This document shows positions 11,403 to 62,919 of a stretch of DNA of 64,000 bases, in pieces. Numbering within the stretch: position 1 is the first letter of the stretch; each line of letters begins with the position of its first letter. Location: positions 51,010,201-51,074,200 of the forward strand of contig NC_085843.1 in assembly GCF_035594765.1 (NCBI RefSeq). The letters are read 5' to 3'. The stretch is from Anolis carolinensis (taxonomy: Eukaryota). The position numbers were made by a program, and so were the translations under genes. Under the pieces are notes generated by a model. The model saw only the letters and a program-made list of their open reading frames with translations. It searched no databases and was not told where the DNA came from.

Positions 11403-12317
11403 TGTGATGACTCATGGGCCATGTAGTCCCGTTCCTAGTGCTGTTGTGACAGATGAAGAGGAAAACTTGGGTTTTCCACCATTTCAGCCAGAAAAGGAAC
11501 TTTCCCAGCCAGAAATGGAGCCCTTGCACCTGCAGGAGGTTTGTCTTCCAGAAATCTGCCAAACAAGCCCTGAGTCAAAATCTCCCCCTTTTTCTCGCCG
11601 TAATTATTATCTCCAGCAAAAAGGAGTGCAGCAGGCTAATCGCAGGAGCTTGAGAATTGCAGCAAAGCATTCAGATGATTAAGCCTGCTTCCATGAGAAA
11701 TTTTAGGGAGTCATACATCTGGACACAGAGATTGACTTTCATTTCTGATTCCCCAGAGAAGTGTTCTCTGGTGGGAAAACGAGGCCTATTTAGGTTCCTT
11801 GCTCCCGAAGGAATCTTGCGGAGTCAATTCGTCAGCTACCGGAGCAGCGTGTGTGGACAGCTACTCCTGCTCTCAAGCCTTTGTTCCTGTTCCAAGCCTT
11901 CGTTCCCAGCCTTGTTTTCTCCCCGGATCTTGCCTTGTTTCCCGGACCTCGCCAAGTAATTACCACGGATCTTGTTCTTGCTCCTCGTTTCCTTGTTGCC
12001 TTGAATCAAGCTTTGTGTTCCAAGAATCAAGTTACTTTCTAGCCTTGCTCAAGTTCATGGACTAAAGGACCTTGTCATCTCCCCTCACTTTGCTTGGCAA
12101 AGTGAGTGTTTCGGTTATTGGATTACAACTTTGGACCTTAATATTTCATATTGGACATTGTTTCTTGGGACTAATTTTGACCTTTCCTGAAAGGTCTATT
12201 TCTGGACTATTTCATACACTTGCTTTTATTAACTTTATATATTCCTTCAATAAAGATATTAGATAGATTCTGGCCTCTGTGTATGGTTATTGGTGCTCTG
12301 CAGCCTGGGTTGTGACA
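11403..12317 (+). repeat. 5' LTR (915 bp)
   Basis: TGTGATG...GTGACA; direct repeat of 16792-17706; AATAAA at 12249-12254. Confidence 0.97.
11787..11827 (+). promoter_or_regulatory. LTR promoter: TATA-like box and predicted TSS/self-primer GCGGAGTCAA (11818-11827)
   Basis: TATTTA lies 31 nt upstream of the motif; the related solo LTR has TATATA 30 nt upstream of the same motif. Confidence 0.65.
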
Positions 12318-12319
12318 GT

Positions 12320-12329
12320 TTGACTCCGC
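12320..12329 (+). promoter_or_regulatory. Primer-binding site of the self-priming (Tf1/sushi) type
   Basis: TTGACTCCGC lies 2 nt after the 5' LTR and is the exact reverse complement of LTR 11818-11827; it has no TGG start of a tRNA PBS. Confidence 0.8.
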
Positions 12330-12359
12330 CGCCCTAAGCACCAATTAACCTAGGCCAGA

Positions 12360-13346
12360 ATGTCTACCGGAACCGTGCCGGGTGGCCAGCCACTCAGCTA
12401 CACCATCGACAAGGACGAAGTGGACCGCATCCGTGACAAGCTCAATGCGCAGGATGGGGAAATAAGGGGTTTGAAGGAGCGCGGAATCCGTCTCCCGGCC
12501 ATGGCGTTGCCAACCAAGTTTTCTGGAGAAGCTTCTAAGGTTCATGTTTTCCGTCGCCAATGCCAGGCTTATCTAGAGGCCCGTGCTGCCGAGTTTCCCC
12601 AAGAAGACATCAAGGTGGCGTGGATTTACAGTCTCCTAGACGGGCCAGCGGCCAACTGGGCGACGGCACTGTTCGACCAAGCCTCCCCACATCTAAGAAC
12701 AGCGCAACACTTCTTGGACCACCTTAAGGCGACTTGGGGGATCGAGGACAATTTGGAGGCAGCCGGCCACAAACTCCGGCGCCTCTCCCAAGGAGACAGA
12801 CCCTTGTCCCAGTACATAGCCGAGTTCCGAGTGCTGGCCCATAACACCGGCTGGAACGATGTAGCCCTCAGAGGACAATTTCGGGAGGGTCTCAACATTG
12901 AGATGCTGGAGGAAATCTCCAAGGTGGATCCTCCACACTCTCTTGAAGCACTCATTGATCAATGTTTACGAGCTGAAGTCATGCTTGCCAACAGAAAGCA
13001 ATGGATCCGAGGCCAGAGCGGTAGGGCTGGAGCGAAACCTCCCGCTCCCACCGGCGTCCAGCCGCGTCCTGTGCGGAGACCCCCGCCACCAGCCCCATAC
13101 CCCAGAGGAAGCGAGGAGGTGCCAATGCAGTTGGGCAACGTGTGTCCCAGACTAGATGCCGCCGAGCAGGCCCGCCGCCAACGCCTAAATCTCTGTTGGT
13201 ACTGCGGAAACGGGGGCCACTTTGCCAGAGAGTGTCCAGCCAAAGGGAAGCCCGCCGCTCGTCTGGCAGCGGCGTCCTCCACGGAGACGAAGACATCTGA
13301 GGCGGCTGGCGCGCAGCCGGCGGGGGAAGCCAGCGACCGGGCGTAG
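12360..13346 (+). CDS. gag: Gag (328 aa), PEG10/RTL-like capsid with CCHC zinc knuckle
   Basis: PTKFSGE and QGDRPLSQYIAEFR capsid motifs; CWYCGNGGHFAREC knuckle. Confidence 0.95.
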   Translation: MSTGTVPGGQPLSYTIDKDEVDRIRDKLNAQDGEIRGLKERGIRLPAMALPTKFSGEASKVHVFRRQCQAYLEARAAEFPQEDIKVAWIYSLLDGPAANWATALFDQASPHLRTAQHFLDHLKATWGIEDNLEAAGHKLRRLSQGDRPLSQYIAEFRVLAHNTGWNDVALRGQFREGLNIEMLEEISKVDPPHSLEALIDQCLRAEVMLANRKQWIRGQSGRAGAKPPAPTGVQPRPVRRPPPPAPYPRGSEEVPMQLGNVCPRLDAAEQARRQRLNLCWYCGNGGHFARECPAKGKPAARLAAASSTETKTSEAAGAQPAGEASDRA

Positions 13347-16300
13347 AGAGGCTCGCCAACCCGGTCAAAAACCCCACTCAAGAGCCGCCAACCGGGGTCC
13401 TATTTCTCCTAGTGGTCACCTTGTGGTCGGTGAAAAAAGGACCCGTCATGGTCCATGCCATGATAGACTCAGGAGCCACAAACAATTTCATTGACAGAGA
13501 GTATGCCGACTCTCTGGGATTACAATATCATGATTTCAAGAACGCCCGTGTGGTGCAAGCCATCGATGGCCGCCCCCTCAAGACAGGTCCAGTAAGCCAG
13601 TGGTCGGAACCCACCAGAATGTGGATAAGGGAACACATGGAAGAGATTTCCTTCTTTGTTACCGAGGTACCCCACTTCCCTGTGATTTTGGGAATTCCAT
13701 GGCTGACACTCCACGACCCAAGCATCTCCTGGTCCAACAGAGAACTGCAGTTTGCTTCAAAATATTGCCAAAACCATTGCCTTGTAGCCAAGGTCTGCCA
13801 TGCCACAGACGCTGAACCCATCATCACCTTGCCCAAGAAGTACTCAGAATATTGGGATGTATTCAATGAAAAGGAAGCCGAGAGGCTACCCCCTCATAGA
13901 CCTTATGACTGTGCCATTGACTTGGTGGAGGGGGCCCCGATCCCGCGAGGACACCTCTACTCCCTGACTGAACCAGAGCAAGAAGCTCTCAGGGAGTTCT
14001 TAGAGACAAACCTCCGCAAGGGGTTTATTAGACCCTCTCAATCCCCAGCCGCTTCCCCAGTGATGTTCGTGAAAAAGAAGTCAGGGGACCTACGCTTGGT
14101 GGTGGACTATAGAGCATTGAACAATATCACTAAGCGAAACCGGTATCCCCTGCCTTTGATCTCGGACCTCTTAGACCGGCTTCGAGGGGCTAAGGTTTAC
14201 ACCAAACTGGATCTTCGAGGAGCTTATAATCTAGTCCGCATCAGGGAAGGGGACGAGTGGAAGACTGCCTTCCAGACTAAATTCGGTTTATTCGAAACCC
14301 TGGTCATGAATTTCGGTTTATGTGGAGCTCCCGCAACGTTTCAACGTTTTGTCAACGATATCTTTCAGGATTATCTAGACCGGTTCTTGATCATCTACCT
14401 GGACAATTTTTTGGTGTTTTCTAGATCGCAATCAGAACATGAGAACCACGTCAGAATGGTGTTACAACGATTGCGGGATCATGGACTTTATGCCAAGCTG
14501 GAAAAATGCGCTTTTGATCTACAAGAGGTAGATTTCCTGGGTTATCGTGTCTCGCCACTAGGGCTCACCATGGACCCGGCCAAGGTAGCGGCAGTATTGG
14601 AATGGCGGGCGCCAACCAACAAGAAAGAGGTGCAACGCTTCTTGGGGTTTGCGAACTACTACCGCAAGTTCATTCCAGACTTTGCCCGCTGGTCTGACCC
14701 AATCACCAGCTGCATCCGTGGGAAACAGCCCTTCCGCTGGACAGACCAAGCAGAGAAAGGGTTCCAGCAACTAAAGAAATTATTCACGTCCCAGCCAATC
14801 CTTCAGCACCCAGATCCTGAAACCCCTTTTGTCGTGCAGGCGGACGCCTCCGATGTGGCGATTGGGGCTGTACTCCTACAACCAGTGGGAGATCATCTTC
14901 ACCCTTGTGCTTTTTATTCCCGTCAATTGACTGCACCAGAGAGAAATTACACTATTTGGGAAAAGGAACTTTTGGCCATAAAGGCAGCCTTTGAAACTTG
15001 GAGACATTGGTTAGAAGGGGCCAAATTTCCCATTGAAGTCCATACTGATCATCGGAATCTAGAGCATCTAAGAACTGCCCGCAAGCTAAATCAGAGGCAA
15101 CAACGCTGGGCTTTATTCTTTGAACGTTTTAACTTCCAAATTCATTATGTAACCCCAGCCCAGACCAAGCAAGCAGATGCTCTGTCACGGAAACCGGAAT
15201 ATGCTGCAGGGCGCAAAGAGACTTTTGAGTCCCAGCTGCTACAGCCCGAGAACTTTGCCACGCTCACAGTGGGAAACACCAAATCCACTCCCATTGAATC
15301 AACTCCCTCTACTCCAGGGCCCCTTTGTGCTCAGGAAATCAGGGCTAGTCAGCAAGCAGATGCCTGGGCACAGGACCAACTTCGCCAAGGACTACATTTC
15401 CCCTTTTCGCTTAAGGATGGGCTACTTTGCTATAGAAATCATGTTTACATCCCTCCAGGACCGGGCAGGGAAAAAGCACTTCGTCTGTGTCATGACTGCA
15501 AGCCAGCAGGGCATTTCGGACTATTCAAAACCATGCATTTGATCCTAAGAGATTTCTGGTGGCCCAAGATCCGCAAGGATGTGGAAAAATATGTCAACAC
15601 CTGCCCAGTATGCCAGCGCTCCAAGACAAGAAGGGAAAAGCCCTCAGGGCTTCTGCATCCCCTCCCTACCCCATCTCGCCCATGGGAAATAATCTCTGCG
15701 GATTTTATCACTGATCTACCACCTTCCTGTGGATTCACCACGATCCTAGTGGTGGTGGACCTTTTTACCAAGTTAGCCCATTTCATTCCCTGTGATGGCC
15801 TTCCCACGGCCAAAGAGACTGCAGATTTATTCCTTCAACATGTCTTCAGATTGCATGGATTGCCCAAGAGTTTGGTCACAGACCGTGGGTCCCAATTCAC
15901 CTCTCGTTTCTGGAAAGCACTACAAAAACTATTGGGCATAGACTCTCGTTTATCTTCGGCTCACCATCCCCAAACGGATGGGCAAACTGAGCGTACCAAT
16001 GCCACTTTGGAACAATACCTTCGCTGTTATGTGAACTACCAGCAGGACAATTGGGCTTCCCTGTTACCGCTGTCAGAGTTTGCCTACAACAATGGGGTCC
16101 AGGCTTCAACTAAAGAAACCCCGTTCTTTGCAAACTACGGCTTCCATCCACGTTTCTTTCCTCCTGTCATTGAAACCTCAGAAGTTCCCGCAGCAGAGGA
16201 CTGGCTGCAGGAACTCACAGCGGTGCAACAACTTTTGCTCCAGCAACTGGACCAAGCCAAGGAGGACTATAAACGCCACGCTGACAAACATCGCCAGCCG

Positions 16301-17071
16301 GGCCCCGAAATCAAGGTAGGAGACCGGGTTCTTCTGTCCACTCGCTTTTTGCCCTCCCACCGCCCTTGCCGGAAGTTAGATGCCCGTTTCATTGGCCCCT
16401 ATCCAGTGGTGGCGCAACTTAACCCCGTGACTTTCAAACTCCAACTTCCGCGCTCTATGCGCATTCATCCAGTGTTTCATCGCTCCCTGCTCCTTCCGGC
16501 GGATGGTGTGCGCCCTGATGCAGACCGGCCGGCCCCCACTCCTGTTTTGGTGGATGGGGAGGAGGAATTCGAGGTTCAGGACATTTTGAATTCTCGCTTT
16601 CACCGCCGCCGCCTACAATATCTCATTGACTGGGTGGGTTTTGGCCCCGAGGAACGCTCTTGGGAAGACGCTTCCACAGTCCATGCCCCCGATTTAACCC
16701 GCCGCTTCCATCAGACCTATCCCGCCAAGCCGCGGCCTCGCGCCTCGGGGAGAGAGTCCCAGTTTGAGAGGGGGCTTGAGGAGGGGGATAGTGTGATGAC
16801 TCATGGGCCATGTAGTCCCGTTCCTAGTGCTGTTGTGACAGATGAAGAGGAAAACTTGGGTTTTCCACCATTTCAGCCAGAAAAGGAACTTTCCCAGCCA
16901 GAAATGGAGCCCTTGCACCTGCAGGAGGTTTGTCTTCCAGAAATCTGCCAAACAAGCCCTGAGTCAAAATCTCCCCCTTTTTCTCGCCGTAATTATTATC
17001 TCCAGCAAAAAGGAGTGCAGCAGGCTAATCGCAGGAGCTTGAGAATTGCAGCAAAGCATTCAGATGATTAA
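13301..17071 (+). CDS. pol: Pol: protease, RT, RNase H, integrase, chromodomain and U3-encoded tail; -1 frame relative to gag
   Basis: Frame is open from 13301 (after TGA at 13298-13300); motifs IDSGA, KLDLRGAY, YLDN, QADAS, TDH, H-H-CPVC, ADF/TDRG/TER, GPY and a chromodomain; last 93 codons lie inside the 3' LTR. Confidence 0.95.
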   Translation, partial: GGWRAAGGGSQRPGVERLANPVKNPTQEPPTGVLFLLVVTLWSVKKGPVMVHAMIDSGATNNFIDREYADSLGLQYHDFKNARVVQAIDGRPLKTGPVSQWSEPTRMWIREHMEEISFFVTEVPHFPVILGIPWLTLHDPSISWSNRELQFASKYCQNHCLVAKVCHATDAEPIITLPKKYSEYWDVFNEKEAERLPPHRPYDCAIDLVEGAPIPRGHLYSLTEPEQEALREFLETNLRKGFIRPSQSPAASPVMFVKKKSGDLRLVVDYRALNNITKRNRYPLPLISDLLDRLRGAKVYTKLDLRGAYNLVRIREGDEWKTAFQTKFGLFETLVMNFGLCGAPATFQRFVNDIFQDYLDRFLIIYLDNFLVFSRSQSEHENHVRMVLQRLRDHGLYAKLEKCAFDLQEVDFLGYRVSPLGLTMDPAKVAAVLEWRAPTNKKEVQRFLGFANYYRKFIPDFARWSDPITSCIRGKQPFRWTDQAEKGFQQLKKLFTSQPILQHPDPETPFVVQADASDVAIGAVLLQPVGDHLHPCAFYSRQLTAPERNYTIWEKELLAIKAAFETWRHWLEGAKFPIEVHTDHRNLEHLRTARKLNQRQQRWALFFERFNFQIHYVTPAQTKQADALSRKPEYAAGRKETFESQLLQPENFATLTVGNTKSTPIESTPSTPGPLCAQEIRASQQADAWAQDQLRQGLHFPFSLKDGLLCYRNHVYIPPGPGREKALRLCHDCKPAGHFGLFKTMHLILRDFWWPKIRKDVEKYVNTCPVCQRSKTRREKPSGLLHPLPTPSRPWEIISADFITDLPPSCGFTTILVVVDLFTKLAHFIPCDGLPTAKETADLFLQHVFRLHGLPKSLVTDRGSQFTSRFWKALQKLLGIDSRLSSAHHPQTDGQTERTNATLEQYLRCYVNYQQDNWASLLPLSEFAYNNGVQASTKETPFFANYGFHPRFFPPVIETSEVPAAEDWLQELTAVQQLLLQQLDQAKEDYKRHADKHRQPGPEIKVGDRVLLSTRFLPSHRPCRKLDARFIGPYPVVAQLNPVTFKLQLPRSMRIHPVFHRSLLLPADGVRPDADRPAPTPVLVDGEEEFEVQDILNSRFHRRRLQYLIDWVGFGPEERSWEDASTVHAPDLTRRFHQTYPAKPRPRASGRESQFERGLEEGDSVMTHGPCSPVPSAVVTDEEENLGFPPFQPEKELSQPEMEPLHLQEVCLPEICQTSPESKSPPFSRRNYYLQQKGVQQANRRSLRIAAKHSDD
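13322..13386 (+). promoter_or_regulatory. Candidate -1 ribosomal frameshift signal (G_GGG_GAA, stem-loop, possible pseudoknot)
   Basis: Gag/pol overlap is limited to 13301-13346; 6-nt spacer, then stem GACCGGG (13335-13341) / CCCGGTC (13360-13366). Confidence 0.6.
16559..16723 (+). other. Chromodomain coding segment of integrase
   Basis: EEEFEVQDILNSR...QYLIDWVGFGPEERSWE...FHQTYP. Confidence 0.92.
16766..16791 (+). promoter_or_regulatory. Polypurine tract
   Basis: gagagggggcttgaggagggggatag directly abuts the 3' LTR. Confidence 0.85.
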
Positions 17072-17706
17072 GCCTGCTTCCATGAGAAATTTTAGGGAGT
17101 CATACATCTGGACACAGAGATTGACTTTCGTTTCTGATTCCCCAGAGAAGTGTTCTCTGGTGGGAAAACGAGGCCTATTTAGGTTCCTTGCTCCCGAAGG
17201 AATCTTGCGGAGTCAATTCGTCAGCTACCGGAGCAGCGTGTGTGGACAGCTACTCCTGCTCTCAAGCCTTTGTTCCTGTTCCAAGCCTTCGTTCCCAGCC
17301 TTGTTTTCTCCCCGGATCTTGCCTTGTTTCCCGGACCTCGCCAAGTAATTACCACGGATCTTGTTCTTGCTCCTCGTTTCCTTGTTGCCTTGAATCAAGC
17401 TTTGTGTTCCAAGAATCAAGTTACTTTCTAGCCTTGCTCAAGTTCATGGACTAAAGGACCTTGTCATCTCCCCTCACTTTGCTTGGCAAAGTGAGTGTTT
17501 CGGTTATTGGATTACAACTTTGGACCTTAATATTTCATATTGGACATTGTTTCTTGGGACTAATTTTGACCTTTCCTGAAAGGTCTATTTCTGGACTATT
17601 TCATACACTTGCTTTTATTAACTTTATATATTCCTTCAATAAAGATATTAGATAGATTCTGGCCTCTGTGTATGGTTATTGGTGCTCTGCAGCCTGGGTT
17701 GTGACA
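16792..17706 (+). repeat. 3' LTR (915 bp)
   Basis: Matches the 5' LTR except one difference found (A11741 vs G17130); AATAAA at 17638-17643. Confidence 0.97.
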
Positions 17707-30995: not shown

Positions 30996-32318
30996 TGTAC
31001 AGTGTAGGTATTACTGGTTGCTTCAGGGCTGGATAGGAATCTTTCCCCCATGTAAGGTTTTTTTTATGTATCTTACACAGGGATTGTGAATTTGGGATAT
31101 TGACTTAGGATGGAGACTTAAATAGATTCCCATGGCAGGTGTAGGAAAAAGATTTGAGTTGGCAAGCACCTTCTAGCACAAATTTGATGAAAGATAGGAT
31201 GTTGGAACAGATTCTATGATCTGGGAGTTGGGGAAAATTAACTGTCCTTGAGGTGGATCTCTGGGTCTTTGCTCCTTCCAGGGCCATGTGGCTTGAGGGC
31301 TTACACCCTCTGATCTGCTTTTTATTTTGTGACTTGCTTTAGAGCAATCCTCGATGTCAGAGGTTCATCTTAGAGGGCTATGGTGTTTTCAAACTGGGGA
31401 GGCTGGAGGGTCATCTGGATGAGACCTACTGCCACAGTCACTCCCACACCAGTTTGTTCCCTTTTTAACTAACCACAGTAGATGTGTGTTCTTCCTTTGT
31501 GCTCTTATATATGTTTGTACTATCTTTTAAGGTACTGTTAATTTTTTCAGCAACACAATAAATGCCTATCCTTTTGTGCATTTATTTAATAGCATAGAAC
31601 ACAGTAAGTCCTAAATATATGTTTCTTAAAAAGAGGTTTATTTGTTAGGAAAAACATTCACTGTACAAGTCTATTAAAACTCTGCCATCTCAGAATGCAG
31701 ATGAAAGAAAATCTGCCCACATAAAATTAGTAGAAAAGGATCTCAGTTATATTCCTCTATGACATATGTTACTGACAATATTTGAAAGGATGCTATACTG
31801 AATATGCAGTAAACTTGCTTTCTGCAAAGACTAAGACAAGAAGCAATAAATTCAAACAATAGGAACAGAAATTCCACCAAAACATTAAAAGGAACTTCCT
31901 AATGGTAAAAGCTGTTCGACAATGGATTAAGTTGCCTTAGCGAGTGATTGAGTTTCCATTTTTGGGGAAGGTTTTTTTCACAGAAGCTGGATTACTATTG
32001 TCAGGAGTGCTTTGCTCGTGCATTCCACCATGACGGGGAGTTGGACTGGATGGCTCTTTCAACTCCATGATTCTATGCCTGTGTTTTGTTCTCATGGGCT
32101 TTTTTTTTTTTGCAAAACTTTAGAAAATGTATTCTCTGTAACTCTAATAATGTACATAGGTGGACATACCACATATTTTTCTAAGCATGTACATTGATTT
32201 CCCAACTCTTCTTTGTGTTAACCCGTGGAGAGAATATTAGTTTATGATTATCAATGTGTATTTTCCTTTGATGTTATAGATAATTTCATAATGACTGTTC
32301 TTCTATATATGTTTTCAG

Positions 32319-32979
32319 TGGGAAGAAATAAGTGGAGTTGATGAGAACTACACGCCAATCAGAACCTACCAGGTTTGCAATGTTATGGACCACAGTCAGA
32401 ACAATTGGCTGAGGACAAACTGGATACCACGCAACTCAGCCCAAAAGATCTATGTGGAGCTCAAATTTACCCTGAGGGACTGTAACAGCATCCCACTAGT
32501 ATTGGGCACTTGCAAAGAGACCTTTAATCTGTATTATATGGAAACTGATGAGGAGTATTCTGTCAAGTTTAGAGAACATCAGTTTACAAAGATTGATACC
32601 ATTGCAGCTGATGAGAGCTTCACTCAAATGGATCTTGGGGATCGAATTCTTAAACTCAACACGGAGGTTCGTGAAGTGGGACCAGTCAGCCGGAAAGGAT
32701 TTTACTTGGCTTTTCAAGACGTGGGTGCATGTGTTGCCTTAGTATCAGTGAGAGTATACTTCAAAAAGTGCCCTTTCACTGTAAAGAACCTTGCTATGTT
32801 TCCAGACACAGTACCTATGGATTCCCAGTCATTGGTGGAAGTGCAAGGTTCTTGTGTTAATAATTCCAAAGAGGAAGACCCACCCAAAATGTACTGCAGT
32901 ACAGAAGGCGAATGGCTCGTTCCCATAGGAAAGTGCTTATGCAATGCTGGCTATGAAGAAAGGGGCTATGCCTGCCAAG
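32319..32979 (+). CDS. EPHA3: Ephrin type-A receptor 3, large internal exon (exon 3 equivalent; ligand-binding domain and start of Cys-rich region)
   Basis: ttttcag|TGG acceptor and CAAG|gtaatg donor, 661 bp; [69 protein letters not shown]...[15 protein letters not shown] matches EphA3. Confidence 0.95.
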
Positions 32980-33467
32980 GTAATGTCTAATGGTTTTTAC
33001 ATTTTCACTGTTTTTTCTTCCTTCAATGAATTTCTGTGCTTTAAACTTCTTTGGAAAAGAACAGAGGGAACAGGCTTGTAACCACTTCCAAAGTGATTTC
33101 TTACATAAACATATCTATTACTAACTAGATGCCTGCAAGCAAAAAATTGACTGGTTGGTTTGACCTAATATGGACAATTCAAACCCTGGGTTGCTCACCA
33201 CTTCTTGGCTGTTGTTACTAAGAAGAAGCCACAACTGACATAATTTTCATAAGGGTCTACTACACAAAGGGTAGATTTTGATAACTGTATTGGTCAGTGA
33301 CCAAAATGCTGCCCAGGAATTCTCATGCCACCCAAACTACTGAACATGTTTAAAAAGAGGGAGGTGACCGAAAATATCTGAAAAACTACTTCTAGTTTTG
33401 AAAAACTACTATATTTTCAGGATGAACTGACCCTGTGAAGAACATAGGTTCCTGGAAACTTCTAGGG

Positions 33468-37196: not shown

Positions 37197-38999
37197 TCAA
37201 TCAATCAATCAATTTATTAATGCTCCGACCAATGGTCATATGCATTTACAGAGACAACATCAAACAAACATCTATACAAAACACTGTAAAATCCAACACT
37301 TAGAAGTAGGATGCAAGCAGGATAAAACAGAACATGTAAACTATACATTGTGAGGTGCAGCAGCACAAGTGCAACATGTGCTGGGAACTGCACAATTACC
37401 GGTAAAATGCCAATGTATAAGATCAGTCATTTAAAAAACATAAAAAATATCAACCAAGCATCTATAGAAATCCTATAAAATTCCACAGTTACAAGCAGGA
37501 TGCATGAAGTATAAAACAGAGCTTGCAAAATATAACCGGTAAAAAGCCAGTATAAAATATCAGTCATGTTAAAAACTAGATAAAAGCATCCCCGGCGCAG
37601 TCGATTGCAATATCCGCAATCAGTCTTGCTCTGATTTTTTTTGCTGCCAAGGTAAAGAGGGAGACCTTATAAGGAGTGATTAAGGAGTTGGTATCAGATA
37701 AAAGATAGAAGATCTTTTCTTCAACCGTGTTCGATCGTAGGTACCATAGAATAGGCCCTAAGAATTTGTGGAGTATAGAGTGCAGGCAAACAAATAGTGG
37801 GGAAGGTCCTCAATTTCTGAGGCCCCACATACACATATTCGGCTAGCCAAAGGAGTGCCCGAGTATCTACCATCCAGCACTGCTGAGGGCATGCTTTGGA
37901 ATCGTAGAGCTGTAAAAGCTTGTCTGAGGTTAGGGAATGTGAGGTTGGTTAGATACATAGCCCTTTCGTGGTCGAATTTGTATAATTTGTACCATGTTGA
38001 GAATTTGGAGCTGTTAATAGCCTGTCTGTCCATTTGAATACCTTGGTTATAAATGTATTCATGCAACTTCTCTCTTGAACTCAGGATTGAAAGCTCATGA
38101 GACAGGGTAGGGTATATTTTCAGCAATTCCTGATGTTTGAGCTCCATACTTTGCATTCAGATAGATGTTCAAAGCATAGCTTTGGGAAAACCCTAGCTGA
38201 GGAATCCTTTATGATTCTCCGATAGTTGTATAGGGAGAAGTGAATGCGGGATCTTATGGAGGGTAAACCAACCTCTGCTCTGACCAAGGCTGCTGGAGTG
38301 CCAGGTGGGAGTCTTAGCAGTTTCTTAAAGAATGTATTCTGGATGGCCTCCAATTTTGGTATCTGTGAATCGTCCCATCCCCAGACTGGGGCGCCGTACA
38401 GAATCTGGGCAATAACTTTGCTCTGGAATATTTTCAGAGCTGGGGCAACCAGATGGCCCCCTGCTGTATTATAAAATCTGAGGATTCCTCCAATAGATTT
38501 TAGTGCCACTTCTCTGCTATGTTCTATATGGGGCTTCCATGATAAAGTCTCTGAAAAATATACACCCAGATACTTAAATTCCCTGCATTGTTCAATCTGA
38601 TGGCCACCAATGGACCATCTGAACTGTGAGTGTCTTTTTCCGAACACCATCACCTTTGTTTTATTATAATTGATGTTCAGCTTTTCTTTGGAGCAGTATA
38701 TGCCCAGTTTAGTAAGTAGCCTTCTTAGACCTATTTGGGCAAATGAGACTAACACCATATTCATCTGCATATAAAAGAGCAGAAATCTTCTTTGAACCTA
38801 CTGAGGGTGGGAAGAATTCTGGACCTGAAAGCGCTGTTATTATATCATTCAAGTATAAATTAAAGAGTGTGGGTGCCAGCAGACAGCCTTGTTTTACTCC
38901 TTTCTTGATGTGAATTGCATCAGTTAGTGAGCCAGAGGTGCCAACTCTTATTCTAGCTGTGGTGTCAGAGTATAGTGCCTTAATAAGAAACAACAGGCG
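37197..38999 (-). mobile_element. 5'-truncated non-LTR retrotransposon (RTEX-like), frameshifted RT and C-terminal Cys/His region
   Basis: GVKQGCLLAPTLFNLYLND, LLYAD, FKYLGV, CVCG...EDLPHYLFAC; AATAAA plus (ATTG)n tail; 13-bp TSD TTTTAAAGAATTA at 37184-37196 and 39000-39012; clade assignment less certain than the element itself. Confidence 0.85.
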
Positions 39000-39928
39000 T
39001 TTTAAAGAATTAAGTATTGTAACTTGTCCAGACAGAAAATAATGACTCAAACATAGGATGGTACTAAAAAAAGTAGATTTGAATTATTAAGTGAAGCTGT
39101 TTTTTAATACAAATTTTATTACGTGCAAAAAGAAAGAAAAAAAAACAGCAAAGGGAGTACAAATAAATGAGATTTTTGTAACATAGAACACTAAAACTAC
39201 TACATCTTAAAAAAACTAAAAATAAGACAAACACATAAAGGTTCCACCTACATATATTAGTATACGGATACTAAACAAACGACCACTGAAACTTATTTAT
39301 GAATCTCACACTCATTGTTGATTTTTAACCTTCATTATCCTACTCTTTTTAGATAATACAGGTGAAACATTTAGCTTTTCCTCTCATGAACATTTAATCC
39401 GGATTTTAAAAAAGTGTTTTATGTCAACAGAACAGCATTATTTTCTTTTAAAAATAAACCTTGTGTCCAACTAAAAACATTTTATCCTAATTTTCCATCA
39501 AAAAAAAAAGAATTGATATGTTAGGAGTAATTTTTAAGTAGAACGAATTGTCATTAGTTGCCACAAAGCCTTACTCACTTTTCCACCACTGGAAACTATT
39601 TTTAAATTGTGTATATCTGTTTTTGCTGATTATTTTATTAAAATACAGTTGAATCCATCCTCTTTCTTTAAAATTAATTGTCTAATGTTCAATGTCCCCT
39701 TTGAATTATTTTAATCGTGTCTCTTCATAAAAACTTCAAAGCATTTGTGTCCACATATTTTCCTTTGTACAAATCAAAACTCTAAAGATGGCAACTTTTG
39801 CAAACAAATGATAAAATGTTCAGCTATGCAAATACAATAAAATCTCAAATATAAATACCTTGAATGCATGTTCAGTTTTCCATGCAATGGTGGCGGTGAC
39901 TGAGACTTATTTAAAAGCATGCTGTCTT

Positions 39929-40620
39929 TAGAATCATAGAATCATAGAATCATAGAATAGTAGAGTTGGAAGAGACCACATGGGCCATCCAGTCCAACCC
40001 CCTGCTAAGAAGCAGGAAATCGCATTCAAAGCACCCCCGACAGATGGCCATCCAGCCTCTGCTTAAAAGCCTCCAAAGAAGGAGCCTCCACCACGGCCCC
40101 GGGGAGAGAGTTCCACTGTCGAACAGCTCTCACAGTGAGGAAGTTCTTCCTGATGTTCAGGTGGAATCTCCTTTCCTGTAGTTTGAAGCCATTGTTCCGT
40201 GTCCTAGTCTGCAGGGCAGCAGAAAACAAGCTTGCTCCCTCCTCCCTATGACTTCCCTTCACGTATTTGTACATGGCTATCATGTCTCCTCTCAGCCTTC
40301 TCTTCTGCAGGCTAAACATGCCCAGCTCTTTAAGCCGCTCCTCATAGGGCTTGTTCTCCAGACCCTTAATCATTTTAGTCGCCCTCCTCTGGACGCTTTC
40401 CAGCTTGTCAACATCTCCCTTCAACTGTGGTGCCCAAAATTGGACACAGTATTCCAGGTGTGGTCTGACCAGGGCAGAATAGAGGGGGAGCATAACTTCC
40501 CTGGATCTGGACGCTATTCCCCTATTGATGCAGGCCAGAATCCCATTGGCTTTTTTAGCAGCCGCATCACATTGTTGGCTCATGTTTAACTTGTTGTCCA
40601 CAAGGACTCCAAGGTCTTTT
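39929..40620 (-). mobile_element. Young 5'-truncated CR1 LINE
   Basis: Uninterrupted 191-aa ORF2 C-terminus ([13 protein letters not shown]); (ATTCTATG)n tail. Confidence 0.93.
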
Positions 40621-41564
40621 AGATCTCATTGCTTAGATCTCATACTAAGAGAAAGGTGGGGTATTGAGAAGTAATTTAACGCATGCTTCCAAAATGTGTA
40701 TATTTTCTAAAGGCATGCTTACAACTATGCCCAAATTTTCACATGTACTTAAAACATGCAGAAATTGACATGGAACTGGAGAAAATGTACTTGAATAGCG
40801 AGAAAATAATTGAACCAAAATTGACATAAGTATGAAGCCTGTAAGACAAACATCCTCACCATGCTCCCTTCAGGTGAGATGTTTATAGAGCAGAATCCAA
40901 TAATATTGTATTGAAGCTAGCAAAATTTTAAATCCATCTGCATTTATGGTAGTATGTGCATGACGCTGCTCTGTTTTGTTGCGTTCATGCGCAGTCTTGA
41001 TGGGACTTGCCATATGCCATCACACAAAGCACGGCAGGTTCTGCCCACCTTCCCCCCCCCCCCCCCCCCCGTAGTGAGGAAAGCATAATGTGGGTAGCTC
41101 CGATGGGGCTAACTGCACTTTTGGCCCCAAAAGCCGATATAATGGAAGAAAGGTCAGAGAGGCAATACACGTTGCCACCCTTTCTGCCATGGGATGAGGG
41201 GTGGGAAAGAGTTCCAACGCACCCTTTCCTGCCCTCCATGTGTAATGAGGGGAGGAGGGAGGGCTCGTGGTTTACCACAAGTTGCCCCACGCATCTTCCT
41301 TTTTGTCGTCGAAAGCCGGTGAGATAGAACAGTGCAGCTGGGTCATGTGACAAGGCTCTGGGTAGTTGAAACAATTTGCTTTTGATAGTTGTTGAAACAA
41401 TACGCTTTATTGAGAAAATAATACAAAAGCAAGAACTAAACAAGCATGAGGTGGTAGTATGGAATGGATGGTCCCTGTGGCCTCCAACGCCTTGATTCTA
41501 TTCTGTTCTAGGACACCTATATCATATATCAGTAAAAGAACCAGATGATTTATTCATTAAGTTT

Positions 41565-43087: not shown

Positions 43088-43947
43088 TGTCAGGACCCAG
43101 GCTGCAGAGCACCAATAACCATGCGCAAAGGCCAGAATCTATCTAATATCTTTATTAAAGGAATATATAAGGTTAATAAAAACAGGTGAAGAATAAAGTT
43201 CAGAAGTAGACCTTTCAGGAAAGGTCAATTATAGTCCAGGAAAACAATGTCCAATATGAGATATTAAAGTCCAAAGTTATAATCCAATAACCGAAACACA
43301 CACCTTGCCAAGCAAAGCGTGGGGAAATGACAGGGTTCTTTTAGTCCAATGGAGCTTGACAACAAAGACTGGAAGCAAACTAGATGCTTGGCAAACAAGG
43401 CTTGATACGTGGCAACAAGAGGCAAGAAGCAAGAACGAGGTCCGTGGCAAGATCCGAGGACAAGGCAGGCTTGAAACTGGAACAAGGTCCGAGGGAACTG
43501 GAGTAGCGTAGTCCACACACAATCTACTCCCGAAGCTGCCGAATTGACTCCGCAAGGATTTCTTTGTGGCAAACACCTATATAGGATCTTGTTTTCCCGC
43601 CAAGGAACACTTTCCCTGGGGAACAAGAAACGAAACCCATACTGTGTCCAGATGCATGACTCCTTAAAGTTTCCCAAGGGAAGCAGACTTAATCAGCTAA
43701 TTGTCTGGCAGCTATCCTGGCGCTCCGGCGAATCGCCTCCCGAGCGCCTCTATCTTGATTATAATAATCCCGGCGAGAAAATGGGGGAGATTTCTGCTCA
43801 AGGCTTGTTTGGCTGACTTCTTGTGGGCAAACATCTTGCAGGTGCAAGGGCTCCAATTCTGGCTGAAACGGTGGGAAACCCAAGTTTTCCTCTTCATCTG
43901 CCTCAATAGTACCAGGAACGGGACTACATGGCCCATGAGTCATCACA
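43088..43947 (-). mobile_element. Solo LTR (860 bp), diverged subfamily of the 11403 element
   Basis: TG...CA ends homologous to the 11403 LTR; 5-bp TSD ATTGG at 43083-43087 and 43948-43952. Confidence 0.95.
43689..43946 (-). CDS. U3-embedded ORF (85 aa) homologous to the Pol C-terminal tail
   Basis: MTHGPCSPVP...DEEENLGFPPFQPE...KSPPFSRR.YY...RRSARIAA aligns to the last 92 aa of Pol; probably not expressed from a solo LTR. Confidence 0.6.
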   Translation of the reverse strand: MMTHGPCSPVPGTIEADEEENLGFPPFQPELEPLHLQDVCPQEVSQTSLEQKSPPFSRRDYYNQDRGAREAIRRSARIAARQLAD

Positions 43948-48329: not shown

Positions 48330-50841
48330 CCGCAGGGGTGGTGGACCTATTAAGATGGTCCGCCCCAGGAGACTTATGGATCCTGAGGGATTCCTGAGGT
48401 CTCTTGGGGATCTGTCTGCCATGGAAGCTGACGATCCTGTTGATGCCTTGGTCGCTCGCTATAATAGTGAGTTGTCCAGGGCAATAGACACGATCGCTCC
48501 CGAACGTCTCCTCTCGCTACGTTGAATTGCCCCAGTTCCCTGGTTCACCGGGGAGCTGGCGGAGATGAAACGCGTGAAATGGAGACTAGAGTGCCGCTGG
48601 TGGACAACTCGTGATGTATCTGACCGAGCACGGTCTAGAGCCACTATTAGGGCCTATTCCGCGGCGTTGCGGGCAGCCAGGAAGGCTTTCTCGACTGCCC
48701 GCATCGCGTCTGCAACAAATAGATCCTCAGAGTTGTTTCGGGTTGTTGGGGAGCTCCTCCACCCTCCTCAGGCTGGGGGGGGCACCTGACATCCTGGCAA
48801 CTCGGTGTAGCGAGTTTGCTCACCATTTTGCAGACAAAGTCGCTCAGATTCGTTCTGACTTAGATGCTGGCCTTGTTGCAATGCCAGGTGAGGTAACCGA
48901 GGCTTCTGTCTGTTCGATCTTGTGGGATTCGTTTCAGCTTGTGCAGCCTGATGATGTGGACAAGATTCTTGGAGCGGTGAGGGCGACCACCTGTGCCCTT
49001 GACCCTTGCCCATCTAGGCTTTTAAAACAGGCCAGTGGTGGGTTGGTTGATTGGTTTTTGAGAATAATTAATGCCTCTTTGGGGCAGGGTAGATTTCCAT
49101 CTTGCCTAAAACAAGCGGTTGTGAGACCTGTCTTGAAGAAGGCCTCCCTAGATTCGACCAACTTGTGTAACTACAGACCAATCTCCAACCTTCCATTTTT
49201 GGGCAAGGTCTTGGAGCGGGTGGTTGCCTCTCAGCTCCAGGGATTCTTGGATGATACGGATTTTCTGGACCAATCACAGTCTGGCTTCAGGCCTGGTTTC
49301 AGTACCGAGACGGCTTTGGTCGCCTTGGTGGATGACCTCCGCAGGGAACTGGACAGGGGGAGTGTGACCCTGCTGGTTCTCTTGGACATCTCAGCGGCTT
49401 TCGATACCATCGACCATGGTATCCTTCTGGGACGTCTCTCTGGGATGGGCCTTGGGGGTGCTGTTTTGCAGTGGCTTCAGTCCTTCCTGGAGGGGCCTTC
49501 CCAGATGGTGAAGCTGGGGGACATCTGCTTGGACCCCTGGCCATTGTCCTGTGGGGTCCCGCAAGGTTCTATTCTGTCCCCCATGCTTTTCAATATCTAC
49601 ATGAAACCGCTGGGCGAGGTCATCCGGGGTTTTGGAGTTCGGTGCCATCTCTACACGGATGACGCCCAACTCTATTACTCTTTTCCACCAAAATCCAAGG
49701 AAGCCCCTCGGATACTGGATCAGTGTCTGGCCGCTGTGTTGGCCTGGATGAGGGCGAACAAGCTGAGACTTAATCCTGATAAGACAGAGGTCCTCCAGGT
49801 CAGTCGCAAATCTGATCGGGGTATTGGGTGGCAACCTGTGCTTGACAGGGTCGCACTCCCCCTGAAGGCGCAGGTCCGTAGCTTGGGGGTCCTCCTGGAT
49901 TCGGGGCTGACTCTTGAGGCTCAGGTGTCAGCCGTGGCCGGGAGGGCCTTTGCACAATTAAAACTTGTGCACCAGCTGCGACCATACCTCAAGAAGTCTG
50001 ATCTGACCATGGTGGTCCATGCCTTAGTTACCTCTAGACTGGACTATTGCAATGCGCTCTACGTGGGGCTGCCTTTGAAGACGGCTCAGAAATTGCAACT
50101 AGTACAACGCTCGGCAGCCAGGTTTCTAACTGGAGCAAATTACAGGGCACGTTCAACGCCTCTGTTTAAGGAGCTCCACTGGCTGCCATTTACCTTCCGA
50201 GCCCAATTCAAGGTGCAGGTTCTTACCTACAAAGCCCTAAACGGTTTGGGACCCGCCTACCTTAGAGACCGCATTTCCCCCTACGAACCCACACGATCTC
50301 TTCGCTCGTCGGGGGAGGCCCTTCTCTCGCTTCCACCACCCTTGCAAGCGCGGTTGGTGGGGACAAGAGAGATGGGCCTTCTCTGTCGTGGCCCCCCCCA
50401 GCTTTGGAATTTGCTCCCTAGGGAGATTAGGCTGGCCCCCACCCTCCTCTCCTTCCGGAAGAACCTGAAAACCTGGCTTTTCCGGAAAGCCTTTGATGAG
50501 TGAATTCTGTTGGTTCAAGCTGTCTGCCTACATAATAATAGACCCACTGATTCGCCTTCTTATTGTCATTATTGTCATTTCTAGTACTTTAATGACTATG
50601 TCAATTACGTAACTACCTCCCCCTGATTTGACACATTCGCCCTTTGGCCTAGACTTGTGTTTTATATCTGTTTTTAACGCTTTTTCCTGCAATATTGTTT
50701 TTATGATGGTTTTACTGATATTGTTGATTTATTGTTGTAAATTTATGTGTTTTGATTTGTTTTTATATTGTGATGTTGGGCAAGGCCCCCTGTGAGCCGC
50801 CCCGAGTCCCTACGGGGAGATGGGGGGGATAGAAGAATAAA

Positions 50842-51725: not shown

Positions 51726-52824
51726 TGTCAAAGACAATAACGCCACCAAATAGAGTACAACACAGTTTATTGAAGTTACAGAACTAAAAAATGCCCGTAG
51801 GAAACAAAGGACTAGGCAAACACTTGTCTTCAGTGTGAAAAGTAACAGAAACAGCTCCGTTTGAACTAAAACGGTTCGAAAGGATAAACCGGATTAAACA
51901 GGAGTTTAATCCGGATTAAATCAAAAGTGCTTATTTCAGCCTGGCAATTTAAACAAACAAAAGTTGGTAAACAAAGGTCAAAATGAACACAAAAAGCTGG
52001 CAGCAGATTCCTCTCTGCTACTCAAAAGCTACAGATGAGTAACTCAGGCTGTTTACTCCTCCGTGCAACGAGCGAAATCCGGGTCCAGGCACATCAATCA
52101 GGGTAACGGCGGTCAGCAGGGTCCCAATCCGGTCCAAGGTCGAAAGCCAAGTGCAGACGTCTAAAGTTCCACAAGTTCCACTGAAAGCCACAGAAGGGAT
52201 AGTCCGAGGTCGTAGTCAGTCAGTCAGTCCAGCGTCAATCCAGAGTAGGTAATTAATGTCCGTCAAAAAGACGACGGAGGTCCAAGGTATCCAGCAACGA
52301 ATCACACCCGTCTTCAGGAAGTTCCCCAACAAGAGCCCAAGCGTTCGTCCAGATTACCTTGCCCAATGCAATTAGCCATTGATCCTAAACCCCATTTTAT
52401 CCCAGTTCATAACTCCTCATCGCTGTCAGCTGCTATCCTAATTCCAGGTGCCTCATCATCATCATCCTCATCAGAGCTAAAACACCTTTGACTACGCCCC
52501 ACAGCATCCCCAGCTGTGGATCCCGCTCCATCCCTCCAGCCCGTCCATGGGTCTGATCCTGCAACCCGCCAATTGCCTCCCATGCTATCATTGCCGGTGA
52601 CACCCAAATCCTCCCTCACACGAGTCCACTCCATGTCATCCTCCTCTGAGCTAACCAACTCTTCCTCCATTCCCTCGGTAAAACCCTCAAATGAGTCTTC
52701 ATCTATTGGCTCTGCAAATAAGTCCCGGAGCCGTTTCCTTTCACGCTCCTCAAAAGAGTCTGACTCTCGAGGAGTCTTACGACCCCGTCTCCTAGTACCG
52801 GAGCCAGAAGGCTCAACCATAACA
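51726..52824 (-). mobile_element. Solo LTR (1099 bp) of a second LTR family
   Basis: Minus-strand ends TGTTATG...TGACA; 5-bp TSD TTTAT at 51721-51725 and 52825-52829; minus-strand AATAAA at 51766-51771. Confidence 0.88.
52407..52820 (-). CDS. U3-embedded acidic ORF (137 aa) with basic NLS-like clusters and a DLF-x8-FEGF motif
   Basis: Open from the LTR 5' edge, with ATG at LTR nt 5-7 as in the other LTRs; coding role is inferred. Confidence 0.55.
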   Translation of the reverse strand: MVEPSGSGTRRRGRKTPRESDSFEERERKRLRDLFAEPIDEDSFEGFTEGMEEELVSSEEDDMEWTRVREDLGVTGNDSMGGNWRVAGSDPWTGWRDGAGSTAGDAVGRSQRCFSSDEDDDDEAPGIRIAADSDEEL

Positions 52825-61319: not shown

Positions 61320-62112
61320 TAGAATCATAGAGTTGGAAGGGACATCATGGGCCATCCAGTCCAACCCCCTGCCAAGAAGTAGAAAAATTGCATTAAAAGC
61401 ACTCCTAACAGATGGCCATCCAGCCTCTGCTTAAAAGCCTCCAAAGAAGGAGCCTCCATCACACTCCAGGCAAAGAGTTCCAATGCTTAATAGCTCTCAC
61501 AATTAGGAAGTTCTTCCTAATGTTCAGGTGGAATCTCTTTTCCTGTATTTTGAAGCTGTTGTTATGCATCCTAGTCTCCAGGGCAGCAGAAAACAAGCTT
61601 GCTCCCTCCTCCCTATGACTTCCCCTCACATATTTATACATGGCCATCATGTCTCCTCTCAGCCTTCTCTTCTGCAGGCTAAACATGCCAAGCTCTTTAA
61701 GCCGATCCTCATGGGGCTTGTTCTCCAGACCCTTGATCATTTTAGTCACCCTCCTCTGGACATATTCCACCTTGTCAACATCTCCCTTCAATTGTGGTGC
61801 CCAGAATTTAACACAGTGTGATTCCAGGTGTGGTCCGACCAAGGCAGAATAGAGGGGTAGCAAGACTTCCCTGGATCTAGACACTATACTCCTATTTATG
61901 CAGGCCAAAATCCCATTGGCCTTTTTAGCCGCCACATTGCATTGTTGGCTCATGTTTAACTTGTTGTCCACAAGGATTCCAAGATCTTCTTCATACGTTC
62001 TGCTGTCGAGCCAGGCATCCCCCATTCTGTATCTTTGCATTTCATTTTTTCTGCCTAGGTGGAGTATCTTGCATTTGTCCCTGTTGAAGTTCATTTTGTT
62101 AGTTTCAGCCCA
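61320..62112 (-). mobile_element. 5'-truncated CR1 LINE
   Basis: 211-aa ORF2 remnant MNFNRDKCKILHLG...WNSLP. Confidence 0.92.
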
Positions 62113-62919
62113 TTGAAAATTGCTGCGAGATCATTTGTATCCACTTTTTTTAAAAAAAAAAGATACGATTTTTATATAAAACACATGGAATCCCAAAACT
62201 GTGGAAATTCACACACACGCACACACATAACAAGCAAAGAGCAATACTAGTCAATGCAACAAGATTTGAGAACATCAATTTATAAATTGTGGTATATACA
62301 GATATCATGTTGCAGAAAAAGTGCTTATGACAAAAATATAAAACAAACATAAGATCAAAGATTTGTCTTCTTGTGCATTCTCCAGTTACTAGCTCTTCAT
62401 GATTCCAAAAGTTTTGTCTTGGTTGAATATATTTTGTTGATGTGGCATTTACATTCAATGCCAAATTTGTGTGTTGCATTAATCTATAGCTTACAAACCC
62501 TATATATCTCAGATTTTATATCATCTTTGAACCTAGCCAAACATGCGTAAAACTAAACATCTGGATCTGTAAATTTATGGGCTGAATTCCAATTTGATAT
62601 CAACATGAAACTTCAGTGACCTGGGTTGATTTATGACTATTTAAACCAGGTGTCACTTTGGAACTCATAGATTAGCCAACCAATACTAGTAAATCTTCAA
62701 CCTCAGATGCTTTCATTTTGTCATTTCTTAGGTTCATAAATAAGGTTGCACCATCAAATGTTACTAACTCAACCAGGAATGGTGTTCCAACATGGATTCA
62801 ATTCATAAAGCAGTTCAAGTATAACTTATAGTTGGGAGAGAGAAATATATAGGGGAAATGGACACAAGAACTTAAAAGGAGGCAAGATTCATTGGGTAGC
62901 AATTGCTAATAACTATAGA

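Follow-up and report, generated by a model that had tools for sequence, protein, structure and literature searches.

The solo LTR at 43088-43947 carries an open reading frame in U3, raising the question of whether the peptide it spells has been kept by selection and, if so, in which copies and for what. The window (the whole 64,000-nt stretch of Anolis carolinensis DNA that was analysed) sits inside an Eph-receptor gene, whose exon at 32295-32990 was identified as Ephrin_lbd by Pfam search. We take this gene to be EPHA3.

The solo LTR and its full-length relative

The solo LTR belongs to a subfamily termed B here and contains the following features (ω is dN/dS).

43088-43947, minus strand: solo LTR of 860 bp with TG...CA ends, sister subfamily B, flanked on both sides by the 5-bp target site duplication (TSD) CCAAT
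43689-43946, minus strand: U3 reading frame of 85 codons plus stop, forming the C-terminal tail of Pol when the LTR is the 3′ LTR of a full element
43920-43946, minus strand: first nine codons, constrained at the DNA level, presumably as the LTR end or att site
43875-43898, minus strand: acidic block DEEENLGF, internal ω 0.13
43779-43790, minus strand: SPxF motif, whose S, P and F do not vary in any of the 167 intact copies, with synonymous variation present
43707-43730, minus strand: RRSARIAA motif, internal ω about 0.05, a likely HMGN/Dot5-like arginine anchor
43544-43583, minus strand: TATA-like box (43583-43578) and probable transcription start (43553), with the 10 nt matching the self-priming site
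43151-43156, minus strand: polyadenylation signal AATAAA

The same window holds a full-length element of subfamily A.

11403-17706, plus strand: full-length Ty3/gypsy element, TSD CTTAT
11403-12317 and 16792-17706, plus strand: LTR pair, 915 bp each, with 1 mismatch
12320-12329, plus strand: self-priming site, a 10-nt perfect complement of LTR nt 416-425 (11818 / 17207)
12354-13346, plus strand: gag (Retrotrans_gag, zf-CCHC)
13301-17071, plus strand: pol, a 1256-codon frame for protease, RT, RNase H, integrase, SH3, chromodomain and then the LTR-coded tail
16568-16714, plus strand: chromodomain of pol
16778-16791, plus strand: polypurine tract (PPT), through which pol reads in frame
16793-17071, plus strand: LTR-coded Pol tail of 92 aa plus stop, with RRSLRIAA at 17030-17053

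The Pol domains stand in the order PR-RT-RH-IN, as in the Tf1/sushi group of Ty3/gypsy chromoviruses, and there is a chromodomain at the integrase's C-terminus (PF00385, 33.7 bits against a cut-off of 25.1). No TGG-type tRNA primer binding site (PBS) was found behind the 5′ LTR. A TATA-like box lies about 30 nt before LTR nt 416, where the complement of the self-priming site begins, and transcription of the family's LTR probably starts at this nucleotide. With the start placed there, the ORF (LTR nt 2-280) lies wholly in U3, and the element would consequently transcribe it only in its 3′ LTR. The element is intact, with near-identical LTRs, and may be polymorphic. It lies in the sense orientation between a GC-rich island about 3.4 kb upstream (7.6-8.1 kb) and the Eph-receptor exon at 32295, and a 1256-codon open frame is common to many copies genome-wide. 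The window also contains LINE fragments, namely a 637-codon RT frame (RVT_1) at 48590-50503 on the plus strand and other RT-like pieces on the minus strand at 40026-40625, 61459-62130 and 37758-39083.

Within this lizard Tf1/sushi-type chromovirus family, the solo LTR represents a sister subfamily, of which it is a young copy. All 40 genome hits that were scored (the window's own copy included, from 2655 candidates) are 99-100% identical to its U3, ruling out an old decayed solo LTR. An earlier note on this DNA had called the LTR diverged, which is right only in the sense of a different subfamily. The same note had taken the frame as support for a U3-tail model, and full-length members of the solo LTR's own subfamily (L121-L123) bear that model out, with 1278 open Pol codons that run in frame into the LTR. 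The frame and stop are indeed shared: both LTRs read from nt 2, over 92 aa at 16793-17071 (plus) and 85 aa at 43946-43689 (minus), and both stop five codons past the motif. The two are separated by a single in-frame gap of 21 nt, whose placement is ambiguous because a copy of a short direct repeat flanks it on either side; EKELSQP is thus one valid reading of it. Over the motif, RRSARIAA (43730-43707) and RRSLRIAA (17030-17053) differ at 8 nt, giving five synonymous codon changes and one L/A replacement as the note described; when 8 random substitutions were placed in these 24 nt, a stretch picked post hoc, one amino-acid change or fewer resulted in 0.085% of 200,000 simulations. Pairwise NG86 ω is 0.38 for the whole tail (bootstrap 0.20-0.74) and 0.08 over Pol residues 40-1164. 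Since NG86 takes no account of transition bias, more weight goes to the maximum-likelihood results given below.

The genome contains 10,069 exact matches to a 30-nt LTR pattern, and the sample analysed here is less than 2% of the family; a pattern aimed at LTRs that begin with other bases returned only 7 copies, all of the same family. The family copies listed are spread along chromosome arms, and 50 of 56 unique solo copies have a 5-bp TSD. One LTR is inserted within the U3 frame of another LTR of the family (L201:1260-1371), and two family elements are nested or adjacent on C1 at about 2.12 Mb (L111/L112). This family's LTR tail also forms the end of two automated gene models from Anolis (P0004 and P0014; one is a P-type ATPase, the other uncharacterised), reflecting either exonisation or an annotation artefact.

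Selection on the LTR-coded tail

The family-wide sample was drawn from the window and 183 + 40 fetched loci. It contained 241 LTR starts, 221 of them with an end, leaving 187 unique LTRs of 780-1020 nt in 44 clusters at 6% distance. An intact tail was found in 171 copies (167 after de-duplication). The 16 copies that failed had a premature stop (6), a frameshift before the motif (5), a frameshift after it (4, one of which is shared by two copies) or a substitution in the motif (1), and all 16 keep a recognisable motif in some frame. Values of ω come from an MG94-type maximum-likelihood codon model with κ set at 3.8 from the downstream LTR, a fixed tree and one rate across sites.

Using the 167 intact copies, we find an internal-branch ω of 0.325 for the tail (LRT 167.7) and a tip ω of 0.43. 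Three pseudo-frames of the downstream LTR gave 1.09, 0.80 and 1.07, and the first 255 downstream columns gave 1.28, 0.86 and 0.97. Read in its five other frames, the tail gave 1.5-2.1 in all but the antisense frame with shared third positions, which gave 0.41 and has 4 stops per copy. By block, ω is 0.40 in the first nine codons (where the synonymous rate is low), 0.13 in DEEENLGF, 0.56 in the spacer, 0.13 in SPPFSRR, 0.34 ahead of the motif, 0.049 in the motif and 1.09 in the last five codons; the tail minus the motif stands at 0.39. For comparison with Pol we used the 67 of 167 copies that have 330 open codons upstream, and in these same elements the motif has an ω of 0.053, the chromodomain 0.042 and the end of the integrase core 0.14. 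About 280 of the 415 nt of U3 are protein-coding, and the 8-residue motif within them is as constrained as the chromodomain.

Insertions and deletions inside the frame keep its phase. The spacers between DNA anchors there have 7 and 2 distinct lengths, all multiples of three (43 of 43 clusters scored), and are in phase in 180/182 and 178/181 copies, respectively; the chance of 7 independent length changes all being in phase is about 5e-4 at one third each. Downstream of the frame, spacers occur in all three phases (22 lengths, for example, are split 8/6/8). Single-base differences in length do occur in the spacer across the stop, so that the frame is maintained as far as the motif but no further. 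No subfamily has a frameshift upstream of the motif, and across subfamilies ω is far below 1. The purifying selection that the earlier note had claimed for the peptide therefore holds family-wide, and we regard it as almost certain that the LTR-coded tail of Pol is under such selection. Constraint on the tail as a whole may be overstated, because its nonsynonymous rate (about 1.0) is not below the synonymous rate of Pol (1.0-1.8); at 0.33, that of the motif is low by the same comparison.

Private changes in young copies look neutral: within clusters of at least 4 copies, singletons number 31 nonsynonymous to 8 synonymous against an expected 2.45:1 (p = 0.29). A tip ω below 1 is expected, since sparse sampling leaves active-lineage history on the tips. 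The neutral-looking private changes place selection on replicating lineages, making the solo LTR a passive recent copy, and the selection signal it bears arose in the 3′ LTR of ancestors that were replicating and that read Pol into U3. Every solo LTR carries a silent copy of the frame because reverse transcription copies U3 to both LTRs in each round.

The terminal motif and its possible contact with the nucleosome

In a test of the motif run without the motif filter (171 of 176 copies scored, 5 masked), R1 is kept in 166 of the 171, R2 in 171, S3 in 169, R5 in 168 and I/L6 in 171. Motif positions 2, 3, 5 and 6 have ω values of 0.002-0.04 (Ser 0.04, Ile/Leu 0.014). R2 and R5 are never Lys, though many copies use AGA/AGG, whereas an R/K site seven codons upstream is Lys in 17. 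Position 4 is loose (ω 0.39, with at least 7 changes on the tree, mostly between A and L), and since it toggles, RRSA is no nearer function than RRSL. The suggestion that the solo LTR's motif is closer still to HMGN thus counts for little; the likeness rests on positions 1-3, 5 and 6.

An HMGN-like motif of the Dsup/Dot5 type is defined as RRSxR[L/I], with Arg at 1, 2 and 5 and Ser at 3, and the tail has all of these. RRSARIAA and the RRSARIAT of yeast Dot5 agree in 7 of 8 residues. HMGN (RRSARLSA), Dsup (RRSSRLTS) and Dot5 share with the tail the RRSxR[I/L] core and its setting in sequence with little predicted order. Binding of Dot5 to the nucleosome needs R6, R7 and R10 and an intact acidic patch (PMC13347269). 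The arginine anchors seen by cryo-EM, HMGN2 R26 and Dsup R367, correspond to motif position 5 and occupy the H2A E61/D90/E92 pocket, the Dsup segment straddling H2A helix 2 (PMC12487698), and the most strongly selected positions of the tail include that of this anchor Arg. Arginine anchors in general are without a defining sequence motif (10.1101/2024.06.26.600687).

The Pol frame runs through the PPT into the U3 of the 3′ LTR and so adds a tail of 83-97 aa. We propose that the terminal RRS[A/L]R[I/L]AA of this tail would act as an HMGN/Dot5-like arginine anchor, tethering the integrase to the H2A-H2B acidic patch of the nucleosome. The tail would remain on the mature integrase, which could then, while integrating or while being tethered in mitosis, make a two-point contact with chromatin, through its chromodomain and through the anchor held on a flexible linker. 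In this role it would be comparable to foamy virus Gag or MLV p12 (PMC9040877). The motif serine may be a phospho-switch, as proposed for HMGN. Judging from sequence, we put the probability of this mechanism as a whole, a selected U3-coded tail bearing an acidic-patch anchor on the integrase, at roughly 60%.

In an alignment-based AlphaFold model the chromodomain is folded (pLDDT 90-94) and the tail is mostly disordered, with the motif in a low-confidence helix over residues 145-169 (pLDDT 51-67 by block); a single-sequence fold of chromodomain plus tail had a pLDDT of 54.7. The conserved Ala-Ala behind the motif suits a helix, unlike the course described for the Dsup segment. A complex prediction of H2A and H2B from the same genome with the 41-aa end of the tail, run without alignment and with no controls folded, scored 0.00 in 2 of 2 runs, which counts neither for nor against the contact. 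The tail alignment had no match at E ≤ 10 in a PDB sequence search, and no Pfam family matched the 85-aa tail (E ≤ 1) or the 92-aa tail (E ≤ 0.1). Membership of the HMGN family was rejected, there being no HMG14/17 Pfam match and the octamer differing at positions 6-7 (also at 4 in subfamily A); the motif further departs from HMGN in that it is on a retrotransposon Pol, has AA at positions 7-8 and lies in a weakly predicted helix. Nucleosomal 10-11 bp periodicity was absent from 260 insertion flanks (p = 0.4, at low power and with some LTR ends possibly mis-typed). These flanks do have a target bias, in that TSD positions 1 and 5 are G/C-rich and position 8 is A in 52% of the 260.

The motif could instead belong to a short amphipathic helix with a different binding partner (Gag, the integrase itself, or a chromatin or transcription factor of the host) in the style of the Ty1/Ty5 targeting peptides, with SPxF and DEEENLGF as further docking or phosphorylation sites. 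Such a role would fit the helix predicted over residues 145-169, the three separate conserved blocks of the tail, the spacing from SPxF to the motif, fixed at 20 codons in 42 of 43 clusters, and the fish-clade relatives that keep SPx[FY] without RRSxR (11 of 140 tails). We nevertheless consider it unlikely, as the helix is of low confidence and the 7/8 match to the motif tested in Dot5 would be a coincidence.

Alternatively, the tail may be selected as an NLS, or as a general basic patch that binds nucleic acid, for the integrase or the pre-integration complex. With a spacing of about 13 residues, the two basic clusters SRR and RRSxR look like a bipartite NLS, the C-terminus of Ty1 integrase bears an NLS (PMC3605345), and the tail of a second family (see below) has a bipartite-NLS-like start, with a non-significant Bimax1 match (E 2.3). 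A charge patch, however, needs neither the strict Arg-not-Lys at R2 and R5 nor the near-invariant Ser and Ile/Leu. The major site of a classical NLS requires Lys, and we find this role less probable still than a helix docked on another partner.

It is highly improbable that the peptide is incidental and that the conservation either concerns DNA sites in U3 (for an enhancer or for host factors) or arises artificially from recombination, CpG or ascertainment. The first nine codons are indeed DNA-constrained: their synonymous rate is 0.69 versus 4.1 at the motif, and their H, G, C and S codons are without synonymous variation. This stretch is conserved as DNA in the way expected of the integrase attachment end of the LTR (PMC3601003). 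Over the final third of the tail (43790-43707 and its equivalents in all subfamilies) the synonymous rate is 3.4-6x the tree average and well above that of Pol, candidate sources being DNA-level escape from host repressors, a deeper genealogy and hypermutability. At the motif itself the DNA varies freely while the residues hold (R5 uses 5 codons and R2 uses 4), which largely refutes a constraint on its DNA. As to ascertainment, the first intact-copy filter demanded the motif and some copies were chosen by protein similarity; without that filter and without the 11 unique copies so picked, motif ω is 0.055. Region-specific trees alter little (motif ω 0.049), the distances measured in Pol, in the tail and in the downstream LTR are correlated (0.87-0.95), and indels keep phase inside the frame only.

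Expression of the solo LTR's ORF alone, as a small protein under host selection made from an ATG at LTR nt 5-7 (166 of 167 copies retain this Met), can hardly be right and was rejected, even with two automated gene models that include such a tail, since the ATG sits within the part of the LTR end that is constrained as DNA, the ORF lies upstream of the probable start site with only 11 open codons ahead of it, the LTR is antisense to the Eph-receptor gene, private changes look neutral and 16 of 187 copies failed the intact-tail filter.

Relatives, a second family and known systems

By its domain order, chromodomain and self-priming site the lizard element fits the Tf1/sushi chromoviruses (Sushi-ichi, Amn; V-clade, Metaviridae), which likewise have gag and a PR-RT-RH-IN-SH3-chromodomain pol. 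As in that group, a self-priming site takes the place of the tRNA PBS (PMC6317226) and the LTR ends are TGTnAnR...TnACA (PMC3601003, Table 3). A difference is that the Pol of the lizard family goes 83-97 codons into U3, where it carries three selected short motifs. The plant CRM group A elements also have a Pol that extends into the 3′ LTR, there coding a targeting module (PMC3059260, PMC3605345). The likeness is one of analogous layout only, and the lizard element is not a member: CRM group A is a different clade with a tRNA-Met PBS, whereas the lizard element is self-priming, and its CR motif replaces the chromodomain, whereas the lizard element has an intact chromodomain upstream of the PPT, with a second module supplied by the LTR.

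Short arginine peptides tether mobile genomes to the acidic patch in several viruses (PFV Gag, MLV p12, KSHV LANA, CMV IE1), the foamy virus Gag and MLV p12 being cases of retroelements that use this surface (PMC9040877). These tethers are on Gag products or nuclear antigens, whereas the lizard motif would be on an integrase and coded by an LTR. The string "retrotranspos" has no occurrence in the main text of that review, and the available text of PMC5053271 has chromoviruses and the acidic patch only in unrelated senses. Literature searches covering listed titles and the openings of abstracts, mostly of papers outside subscription, found no acidic-patch or HMGN-like motif on a retrotransposon integrase and no description of an LTR overlap of Pol in vertebrate sushi elements.

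Outside Anolis, RRSxR[IL] is present in 1 of 140 homolog tails (P = 0.11 by shuffling), many of the 140 proteins being spliced or frameshifted gene models. Two sister relatives from a separate clade have post-PPT tails ending in RRSARIAA and RRSQRLAT; the latter (P0164) has a different motif spacing and was found by a search seeded with its sister. In an SH3+chromodomain tree built from search hits alone (49 rows selected from about 190), the pair falls among sequences labelled as amphibian and not with the squamate clade. Relatives from Rhineura and Vipera have the acidic spacer and basic end, and in them the motif is absent. Read-through beyond the PPT-coded GG.V occurs in 26 of 124 short-tailed relative proteins. 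The 11 tails with SPx[FY], which resembles the invariant SPxF of the lizard family, are mostly from a clade holding fish-labelled proteins; in the fish-clade chromovirus Pols P0028, P0045, P0060, P0080, P0099, P0113, P0125, P0151 and P0153 it is conserved at the extreme C-terminus, a few codons after the PPT.

The window also includes an LTR of a second family, which has a tail of its own.

51726-52824, minus strand: second solo LTR, of a chromodomain-less Ty3/gypsy family, TSD ATAAA
52823-52407, minus strand: 138-aa U3-coded Pol tail of the second family, with DEDSFEGF at 52703-52680

The Pol of this family is 54% identical to that of the first over 892 aligned residues and reads 138 codons into U3 (L269-L281). 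For 34 unique intact copies of the 39 found, internal ω is 0.26 in the tail, 0.06 over the 24-codon block ending in DEDSFEGF and 1.09 downstream. We take the acidic FxGF motif to resemble ligands of the LEDGF/TFIIS N-domain.

We tentatively suggest, while thinking it rather more apt to be wrong than right, that in vertebrate Tf1/sushi elements the beginning of U3 serves as a swappable cassette from which the integrase tail takes its chromatin-tethering motifs: the HMGN-like anchor in the lizard family and, apparently separately, in the amphibian-associated clade, SPx[FY] in the fish clade and acidic FxGF, with its presumed LEDGF/TFIIS-N likeness, in the chromodomain-less lizard family. If so, integrases would read the nucleosome face and transcription-elongation factors by mimicry of host motifs, encoded in "non-coding" LTRs. 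Little attention has been given to how vertebrate Ty3/gypsy elements select chromatin and stay attached to it, and the integrase is commonly assumed to stop at the chromodomain. If the lizard motif does bind the acidic patch, it would be an HMGN-like anchor on a retrotransposon integrase and one of the wider set anticipated by the HMGN/Dsup structure paper. For this lizard family, LTR ages and neutral-LTR assumptions are biased between subfamilies, and its some 10,000 LTR copies seed false gene models.

The second family has 255 exact PPT-junction matches in the genome. Three of its PPT-LTR junctions lie 5205 bp apart (L273-L275, C1 26.75-26.77 Mb), which suggests a tandem array with shared LTRs.
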